A DNA stretch of 33,904 nucleotides, from IMG/VR virus record IMGVR_UViG_2541047875_000010, positions 1-33,904 of that record; one strand, given 5' to 3'. The DNA comes from a virus (Duplodnaviria > Heunggongvirae > Uroviricota > Caudoviricetes). This document shows positions 7,881 to 8,857 of the stretch, one piece after another. The translations under genes were made by a program, and so were the position numbers. The first letter of the stretch is position 1; every line of letters starts with the position of its first letter. The notes under the pieces are model-generated. The model was not told the DNA's origin. It saw only the letters and a program-made list of their open reading frames with translations, and did not search any database.

Positions 7881-8502
7881 ATCGATTTACAGAAACCACA
7901 GATATGAGGACTTAAACGTGGGTAAAGAACCTGAATGGAAAGTTGATAAACAACCAGCATGGCTGGTGGCAGCAATACGAAGAACGATTGCTGATTTACC
8001 TCATGGCTATGAGGAAGCAGCAGAAATTCTTGGTTTGTATAAATCTGATGATATCACCCCAGCAAAAGATCAATTGCATAACAGACTGCGTAGCGGTGGG
8101 GATCAAATTTTTCCACTTGAGTGGGCCATGGTTTTACAGGATGCCAGTGGTACCAGGCATGTAACAGATGCAATAGCCCGTCGTAGTAATGGGGTGTTTG
8201 TGCCGCTGGTGGTCATTGATGACATTGACAATGGTGACATTAATCAGCGGCTGATGGAGTCAATAGAATGGATTGGCAAGCATTCCCAGTACTTACGCAA
8301 GGCAACTGCTGATGGAGTTATTGACCAAGCTGAGCGTGAGCAAATCGAAGAGAACAGCTACCAAGTAATGGCGAAGTGGCAGGAGCATTTAACACTGTTA
8401 TTTCGTGTTTTTTGTGCGCCGGAAAAGAGTAACGCCCGCGAGTGTGCAGCTCCGGGCGTCGTGGCGTCGATTGCTTCTGGTTGTGGAGAAACTAACGCAT
8501 GA
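7873..8502 (+). CDS. CII-position protein, YdaT-like (putative regulator/toxin-family domain)
   Basis: ATG 7873 overlaps the cro stop; an alternative ATG lies at 7861; assignment to the YdaT family is from memory and is tentative. Confidence 0.4.
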
Positions 8503-8837
8503 ACAGTTTAACAACACACTACCGTCGCTCGCAACTGATTGCGCTTCCTGTACCGGGTGGAAAAGCGAAGGTGGAGTATTGCTATGCAGTAAATGTACTA
8601 GGTGACAGGGAAATTGTAACCCACAGATTTGCAGAGTGGGCTGTGGGTGATTTCAACCGGCAGAAGGAGACAGTCCTGTGCAACAAGTTAACCGCTGGTT
8701 CAAAGATCACTACGGAGTGCCCGTCAGAGTCATTCGTTGGGAACCGGAAACACAACGGGTTATCTACCTCCGCGAAGGCTATGAGCATGAATGCTTCAGC
8801 CCGCTCGAACAGTTTCGTCGTAAATTCAGGGAAATAG
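8499..8837 (+). CDS. hypothetical protein (N-terminal ~55 aa protein-like, C-terminal part doubtful)
   Basis: ATG 8499 overlaps the upstream stop (ATGA); first half ([28 protein letters not shown]) looks coding, the rest is Ser/Asn-rich and overlaps a better-looking ORF in another frame. Confidence 0.25.
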
Positions 8838-8857
8838 AGGTCGGTCATGAGCACTAA
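8678..8857 (+). CDS. small hypothetical protein (59 aa, GTG start), not in ORF track
   Basis: GTG 8678 preceded by AAGGAG at 8664-8669 with 8-nt spacing; translation [59 protein letters not shown] is strongly protein-like; stop 8855-8857 overlaps the start of the O-like gene. Confidence 0.45.

Follow-up and report, generated by a model that had tools for sequence, protein, structure and literature searches.

We analysed a window of 33,904 nucleotides (nt) from the virus record IMGVR_UViG_2541047875_000010; all coordinates are those of this window, and open reading frames (ORFs) were read directly from its sequence and from the ORF list. The stretch under study is the immunity and replication region of an e14-like lambdoid prophage with the gene order ymfK-ymfT-ymfL-ymfM-replication gene, and at least 80% of it is present in about 2000 of 5426 complete Escherichia coli genomes. 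Between a ymfL-like (cII-like) gene and an O-like replication gene, positions 8499–8857 hold a 112-amino-acid (aa) ORF and a 59-aa ORF that begins with GTG inside the first one and extends 20 nt beyond its end (Table 1). The initial annotation, whose coordinates for both ORFs hold, had left it undecided whether these are two genes or one ancestral gene carrying a frameshift. Since 8499 is 0 and 8678 is 2 modulo 3, the shorter ORF lies in the −1 frame relative to the longer one. Its frame has nine open codons upstream of the GTG and is then shut by a TGA, so the two frames could join only within 8651–8690, as had been noted. The 59-aa ORF ends with a TAA (8855–8857) 11 nt into the O-like gene, which agrees with the overlap described initially.

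The initial annotation had missed that the longer ORF is a known gene. Its product is 96% identical over 112 aa to the main cluster of relatives (P0001) and matches phrog_1170 end to end (residues 1–112, E = 3e-68). In E. coli K-12 MG1655, the homologous place carries b1148, annotated as "cell division inhibitor YmfM", and no other annotation; this e14 gene (SfiC) is of the same family and locus as the window gene, with 96% protein identity. The full-length similarity, together with the position between ymfL and the replication gene, indicates that the ORF is ymfM of the e14 prophage, the gene assigned as SfiC, an inhibitor of division in E. coli K-12 that the SOS response induces.

The shorter ORF matches the Pfam family PF13973 (DUF4222) with 67.8 bits (E = 6e-19; residues 2–53 aligned to positions 3–52 of the 53-position model), well above the gathering cut-off of 27 bits, and is hence a member of that family. 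The Prokaryotic Genome Annotation Pipeline (PGAP) places a DUF4222 coding sequence (CDS) at the exact equivalent of 8678–8857, and no ymfM, both in a 99.8% identical genome and in K-12 strain J53. Each gene was thus individually known beforehand, ymfM from the K-12 annotation and DUF4222 from Pfam and PGAP. NCBIfam gave no matches, and a sequence search of the PDB returned nothing for either the YmfM or the DUF4222 protein. Identical K-12 DNA carries conflicting annotation: MG1655 (NC_000913.3, 1203822–1204180) has ymfM only, and J53 has only the DUF4222 CDS WP_001250269.1. Two annotation traditions therefore each see one frame; the MG1655 reference misses a strongly conserved gene inside ymfM, genomes annotated by PGAP miss ymfM instead, and each of the about 2000 E. 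coli genomes with the stretch is annotated with only one of the two genes. The locus illustrates why gene callers and ATG-only ORF scans choose one frame and overlook the other.

DUF4222 homologues are spread across Enterobacterales. Of 37 loci drawn from different genera, 31 have ATG as the start codon, three TTG and three GTG, and a purine-rich GGAG-like element precedes the start by 5–11 nt in nearly all relatives. The window has GTG where K-12 and most E. coli copies have TTG, and we recovered the start context that had been described for it, an AAGGAG separated from the GTG by an 8-nt spacer (8670–8677). Read in the DUF4222 frame, the overlap has a ratio of nonsynonymous to synonymous substitutions (dN/dS) of 0.04–0.3 with saturated dS (> 1), which denotes strong purifying selection. 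Consistently, only three DUF4222 protein variants occur among 80 close loci, near-identical E. coli viral contigs from a viral-contig scan with the DUF4222 alignment, which represent population variation rather than diversity. These features indicate that DUF4222 is translated independently, from its own Shine–Dalgarno sequence and GTG inside ymfM. The initial suggestion of a second gene missed by ATG-only calling is thereby borne out by the Pfam match, by the PGAP CDS at the same coordinates and by the ATG, GTG or TTG starts of the relatives. The product is predicted to be a small Tudor/SH3/KOW-like beta-barrel. Its residues after about position 56 vary with the type of the downstream replication gene (HEH, EPVNAIPADSDKP or longer tails). 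The codons of these C-terminal residues lie over the 5′ end of the replication gene, read in a different frame; DUF4222 and the replication gene overlap there by 4 to 92 nt and form a second overprinted junction, seen in the window (8838–8857) and in the related loci L016, L018, L024, L025 and L036 (around locus position 2660–2760).

The same data bear on the view taken in the K-12 reference annotation, according to which the 112-aa ymfM is the sole genuine gene and the 59-aa ORF merely happens to be open within it. Besides the annotation of ymfM alone in MG1655, expression of the "ymfM ORF" has been reported to cause filamentation (bioRxiv 10.1101/2020.11.19.390815), yet the clone used, going by its inferred extent, also carries the DUF4222 Shine–Dalgarno sequence, start and 53 of 59 codons and so does not discriminate. 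Substitutions in the overlap follow the DUF4222 frame rather than the ymfM frame, where dN/dS is at least 1, and DUF4222 is a Pfam family that also occurs as a stand-alone gene. On these comparative data we consider the ymfM-only reading already refuted and give it a negligible chance.

YmfM itself falls into two unlike parts. The first approximately 58 residues form a conserved but fast-evolving domain, with 18 invariant columns within residues 1–50, a dN/dS of 0.2–0.45 and an AlphaFold model of three strands and two helices (predicted local distance difference test score, pLDDT, 64–77); four sequence types of this N-domain are homologous to each other (hhalign probability 73–97%). The remainder is Ser/Thr/Asn-rich, non-conserved and predicted to be disordered: residues 61–112 include 10 Ser and 6 Asn in 52 residues, pLDDT is below 50 for residues 68–112, and dN/dS in the ymfM frame is at least 1. 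The 80 close loci contain 32 YmfM variants versus the three of DUF4222, and nearly all of the YmfM variation lies in the tail. In the tail comparison, third-position T amounts to 20%, as against 31% in stand-alone DUF4222 genes. The initial annotation had read the ORF as protein-like for about 55 codons and Ser/Asn-rich and of low complexity thereafter. Both parts of that description hold, with an N-domain of about 58 residues, but the second half is not mere decay, as its open frame and the position of its stop are kept by selection.

The ymfM frame is open over the first 53 DUF4222 codons in all 37 loci. Over the same codons, the third sense frame (+2) is open in only one locus, and the three antisense frames in 25, 0 and 0 loci. 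Under a null model in which the DUF4222 protein is held fixed and synonymous codons are redrawn from local codon usage, an open ymfM frame is expected with P = 0.02–0.20 per locus (mean 0.09). Taking one locus per cluster, the joint probability of open frames is 10^-8.4 for the 8 lineages at a threshold of 75% nucleotide identity and 10^-12.7 for the 12 lineages at 80%, values that are rough, as the lineages are related and not independent, though dS between them exceeds 1. The codon alignment reveals how the frame stays open. In the embedded DUF4222 genes, Val, Leu or Ile before Asn is encoded only by GTT, CTT, CTC, ATT or ATC, Val before Ile (two sites) only by GTC or GTT, and Leu before Glu only by CTC or CTT; thus, the sites at risk are free of codons that would introduce a ymfM-frame stop. 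At a Leu that precedes CGN, where no stop can arise, CTG is found in 21 of 31 cases. The overlap persists in DUF4222 genes that are only about 40% identical, inside YmfM homologues of 114–117 aa (L123, L125 and L127), and as a control, stand-alone DUF4222 genes have two to five stops in that frame in five of six lineages. Across diverged relatives, both frames are open beyond what constraint on one of them would produce, and chance falls far short of explaining why the two open frames coexist.

The end of the ymfM frame is equally constrained. In 31 of 33 loci, the ymfM stop is formed by a DUF4222 xTA codon followed by A or G (ATA in 19, TTA in 8, GTA in 3 and CTA in 1). These are rare codons, and their third-position A persists through Ile, Leu and Val changes in DUF4222. 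In 28 of 35 loci, 9 nt separate the ymfM stop from the ATG of the following gene, a spacing that is kept across at least five unrelated N-termini of the replication gene; the remaining loci have 6, 3, 0 or −11 nt. The stop position is also independent of the stop of DUF4222 itself, which lies 4 to 92 nt inside the next gene. The context TAG-AGG-N6-ATG places the ymfM stop within the ribosome-binding site of the replication gene.

With these constraints in view, we can weigh the possibility that DUF4222 alone is real in 8678–8857, ymfM effectively ending with its N-domain and the 52-codon continuation being accidental and without selective value. PGAP, which annotates no ymfM, implies as much, and several properties of the tail fit: it shows no amino-acid conservation (dN/dS at least 1; 32 tail versus 3 DUF4222 variants), it is predicted to be disordered, relatives with the N-domain only do exist, and chance alone leaves the +1 frame of a coding sequence open about 9% of the time, as in L130–133. 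An accidental continuation, however, is hard to reconcile with a frame that is open in 37 of 37 loci, with a joint probability of at most 10^-8 even for eight deeply diverged lineages. Nor does it explain that precisely the stop-making synonymous codons are absent while CTG dominates at the no-risk Leu, or that the stop position is held through amino-acid changes by means of rare xTA codons; and stand-alone DUF4222 genes do gather stops in the ymfM frame. We therefore regard this explanation as improbable.

The other proposal of the initial annotation was a single gene split by a frameshift, either as a pseudogene of an N-domain–DUF4222 fusion or through programmed −1 ribosomal frameshifting that makes such a fusion. 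The −1 relation of the frames and the Shine–Dalgarno-like AAGGAG upstream, as in dnaX, are compatible with it, and fused ORFs with both parts are found in databases (P0031, P0050, P0057, P0062 and P0088). These five variants are the only relatives with one continuous ORF, a configuration that the initial annotation had proposed to look for, but they are rare, with 1–14 member sequences as against 1295 for P0001, and each has a different junction, so that they represent isolated indels or errors of assembly. All of the 37 diverse and the 80 close loci show the split state, and we rejected the frameshifted pseudogene on these grounds. A programmed site was likewise rejected: a slippery heptamer of the type X XXY YYZ is absent between −60 and +150 in the window and in most relatives, the few found in some relatives are neither homologous nor conserved, and no conserved structure is present at the junction. 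Moreover, the −1 frame is closed upstream in relatives, with a stop 0–2 codons 5′ of the DUF4222 start in L035, L018, L026, L027 and L031, and DUF4222 has its own start and Shine–Dalgarno sequence in all loci, with conservation of the start codon (ATG, GTG or TTG). Relatives in which separate genes encode the N-domain and DUF4222 exist as well. A frameshift of either kind thus appears extremely improbable, and this part of the initial proposal does not survive.

We conclude that 8499–8857 very probably represents two genes that overlap out of frame by 160 nt in the early-right operon of an e14-like prophage, with both frames maintained by selection. Several points weigh against this conclusion. 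The YmfM tail has no amino-acid conservation of its own, and some relatives do without it: the N-domain carries a short unrelated tail in L120 (78 aa) and L122 (73 aa) and ends 11 nt into DUF4222 in L119, so that the tail is dispensable in some phages. One stand-alone DUF4222 lineage (L130–133) and a Providencia gene also have an open +1 frame. The composition test presupposes the codon-usage null, codon bias may explain part of its outcome, and the non-independence of the lineages keeps the joint probabilities rough. In two of the 37 loci (L023 and L026), the ymfM stop is not located beside a long downstream ORF. Both products of the window are known from sequence alone, and the coupling model described below is read from geometry only.

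The tail-less relatives differ in their surroundings. In L120, the 78-aa N-domain protein is encoded directly before the replication gene and DUF4222 is absent; in L122, a KilA-N/ANT gene lies between the N-domain gene and the DUF4222 gene; and L119 is a Providencia N-domain/DUF4222 pair with an overlap of only 11 nt. A further variant, P0054 (83 aa), joins the N-domain to a tail that equals the 3′ end of the O-like gene (window 9550–9807) read in another frame, which marks it as a prophage remnant with DUF4222 and most of the replication gene deleted.

Table 1. Features of the ymfM/DUF4222 locus, in window coordinates.
Feature	Position	Strand	Basis or remark
ymfL-like (cII-like) gene	7918..8502	+	PGAP CDS mapped from 99.8% identical genome; Pfam Phage_CP76 match
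GGAG Shine–Dalgarno sequence of ymfM	8485..8488	+	10 nt 5′ of ATG; sequence reading
ymfM-like ORF, 112 aa, ATG start (e14 SfiC cell-division inhibitor family)	8499..8837	+	
Singly coding part of ymfM, conserved N-terminal domain of ~58 aa	8499..8677	+	
TGA closing the DUF4222 frame 5′ of its start	8648..8650	+	Sequence reading
AAGGAG Shine–Dalgarno sequence of DUF4222, within ymfM	8664..8669	+	Sequence reading
DUF4222 gene, 59 aa, GTG start (8678–8680)	8678..8857	+	Predicted small Tudor/SH3/KOW-like beta-barrel
Dual-coding segment, 160 nt: ymfM tail (frame 0) over DUF4222 codons 1–53 (frame −1)	8678..8837	+	
ymfM stop TAG, made by DUF4222 codons ATA-GAG	8835..8837	+	Codon alignment
9-nt spacer AGGTCGGTC, contains AGG of the replication-gene ribosome-binding site	8838..8846	+	
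O-like replication gene (HTH_36), ATG 8847, ATGAGCACTAA	8847..9788	+	Overlaps last 11 nt of DUF4222

With an upstream stop within about 10 nt of the downstream start, the geometry at the junction of ymfM and the replication gene suits coupling by termination and reinitiation. At the other end of ymfM, the TGA of ymfL (8500–8502) shares bases with the ymfM ATG in an ATGA (8499–8502), and alignment reveals that the sequence GGAGA(A/T)ACTAA at the ymfM start is kept in relatives with different N-domain types. Our scan for promoters and terminators found a PR-like promoter (7625–7653) as the sole promoter, with none inside ymfM, and no convincing terminator. From this arrangement we propose a model of ribosome traffic. 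Once the CI-like S24-peptidase repressor is inactivated, the PR-like promoter would transcribe all genes, and the ATGA overlap would hand ribosomes from ymfL to ymfM. Ribosomes in the ymfM frame would cross the DUF4222 start, terminate 9 nt before the ATG of the replication gene, in its ribosome-binding site, and reinitiate there, whereas those in the DUF4222 frame would stop 8 nt beyond the same ATG. The ymfM frame might then be kept open mainly for ribosome delivery to the replication gene, the tail being hydrophilic and so harmless, or possibly functional as a disordered segment such as a degron or linker. Such delivery would account for the avoidance of stops without sequence conservation, for the fixed stop and for the harmless hydrophilic tail. 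The combination of a non-conserved tail, strict stop avoidance and a fixed stop suggests that selection acts on ribosome traffic and not on the peptide. The locus shows cleanly, in a natural setting, how an overlapping frame can be maintained: free in the sequence of its tail, strict in its avoidance of stops and fixed in its stop at the ribosome-binding site of the next gene. Independently of this model, the ymfM TAG and the ATG of the replication gene lie in one frame, three codons apart (8835–8849), and the gap is a multiple of three in 34 of 35 loci. Readthrough of the stop would thus yield a fusion of YmfM with the replication protein; the frame constraint of DUF4222 may be all that lies behind the in-frame spacing.

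Small genes inside longer ones are familiar from lambdoid phages. In phage lambda, Rz1 lies wholly inside Rz, and both products have been shown experimentally to be spanin subunits. Like Rz1, DUF4222 is a small lambdoid gene that shares DNA with a longer gene in another frame and has a ribosome-binding site and a start of its own, and both frames are open across relatives. Unlike Rz1, DUF4222 runs past the end of the longer gene, the overprinted part of ymfM is a non-conserved tail, the function is not lysis, and the ymfM/DUF4222 pair is known here from its genes. Programmed −1 frameshifting, as in dnaX (tau/gamma) or lambda G/GT, shares with our locus the −1-related frames and a Shine–Dalgarno-like element a few bases 5′ of the switch region, but differs in its slippery heptamer and conserved stimulatory structure, both missing here, and in that the second frame at our locus has its own conserved start and is closed immediately upstream in several relatives. 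Coupled genes such as trpB-trpA and trpE-trpD resemble the locus in having a stop within a few bases of the next start, as at the junctions of ymfL with ymfM (ATGA), of ymfM with the replication gene (9 nt) and of DUF4222 with the replication gene (11-nt overlap). The difference is that ymfM has to traverse another gene, lying in a second frame, before it reaches its junction, and that coupling is proposed here from the layout. We class ymfM and DUF4222 as an overprinted phage gene pair with putative translational coupling. By its setting in an SOS- or induction-controlled early operon and its reported prevention of Z-ring assembly, the small YmfM protein further resembles Kil (lambda/Rac), DicB (Qin), T7 Gp0.4 and SulA. 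Across the literature on DUF4222 and on ymfM with FtsZ, we found neither an earlier description of the conserved dual-coding overlap with its fixed stop at the start of the replication gene nor a paper that addresses the ambiguity between ymfM and DUF4222.

This ambiguity touches the assignment of ymfM as the long-sought SfiC division inhibitor. Ansari et al cloned "the open reading frame" of ymfM in pBAD24, deleted the gene by lambda-Red recombination and concluded that ymfM is SfiC; according to their report, expression from pBAD24 prevents the Z ring from forming, and the gene contributes to SOS filamentation (bioRxiv 10.1101/2020.11.19.390815). The text of that study does not mention the internal ORF, and the embedded DUF4222 gene likewise goes unmentioned in the K-12 annotation and the ymfM papers that we examined. 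If the ends of the clone and of the deletion are those implied by the phrase "open reading frame", the cloned segment includes the ribosome-binding site, the start and 53 of the 59 codons of DUF4222, that is, the whole Pfam domain, and the deletion removes the same elements. Earlier library clones likewise held both genes. Clone and deletion would then affect both genes, so that the ymfM experiments could not tell the two products apart, and the SfiC assignment needs the effects of the two genes to be separated. Tentatively, SfiC filamentation may be caused by, or may need, the embedded 59-aa DUF4222 protein, a predicted Tudor/KOW-like mini-barrel for which the K-12 reference has no annotation; we regard this as possible, if on balance unlikely. 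Were it so, the C-terminal half of "YmfM" would be only an overprinted track for ribosome delivery.

Several further observations concern the surroundings of the two genes. The records of Klebsiella phage ST101-KPC2phi6.3 and Escherichia phage vB_EcoS-733R5 list a 90-aa ORF on the antisense strand (8582–8854) as a hypothetical protein. As a candidate conserved gene it was rejected, being interrupted in 12 of the 37 related loci, and it is most likely a mis-call. A 66-aa ORF (8405–8605) had no family match in the Pfam scan. At the 3′ end of ymfL, about 40 nt upstream of the ymfM ATG, a conserved hairpin (8432–8459; CGCCCG.GAGT / GCTC CGGGCG) is found 5′ of all N-domain types, with one compensatory change from a C-G to an A-U pair in three of ten sequences. 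The hairpin coincides with a mosaic boundary, as the window and K-12 alleles of ymfL are diverged upstream of it and nearly identical downstream; the hairpin may serve as an oop-like antisense terminator or mark a processing site.

Further downstream, a second short LexA-like ORF (10246–10605, 119 aa) lies 3′ of a PerC-like gene and is annotated by PGAP as "LexA repressor" in a near-identical genome; the ORF seems to comprise a winged-helix DNA-binding part and to lack an obvious peptidase domain. Within the O-like gene, four to six iteron-like 15-nt direct repeats (TCAAAATCTGACNCG) occupy 9150–9224 (also 9228–9257 and 9272–9296). An Rfam scan of 7400–9400 returned nothing but a sub-threshold mir-5880 match, which is explained by these repeats. 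As in lambda, the repeats probably mark the replication origin.

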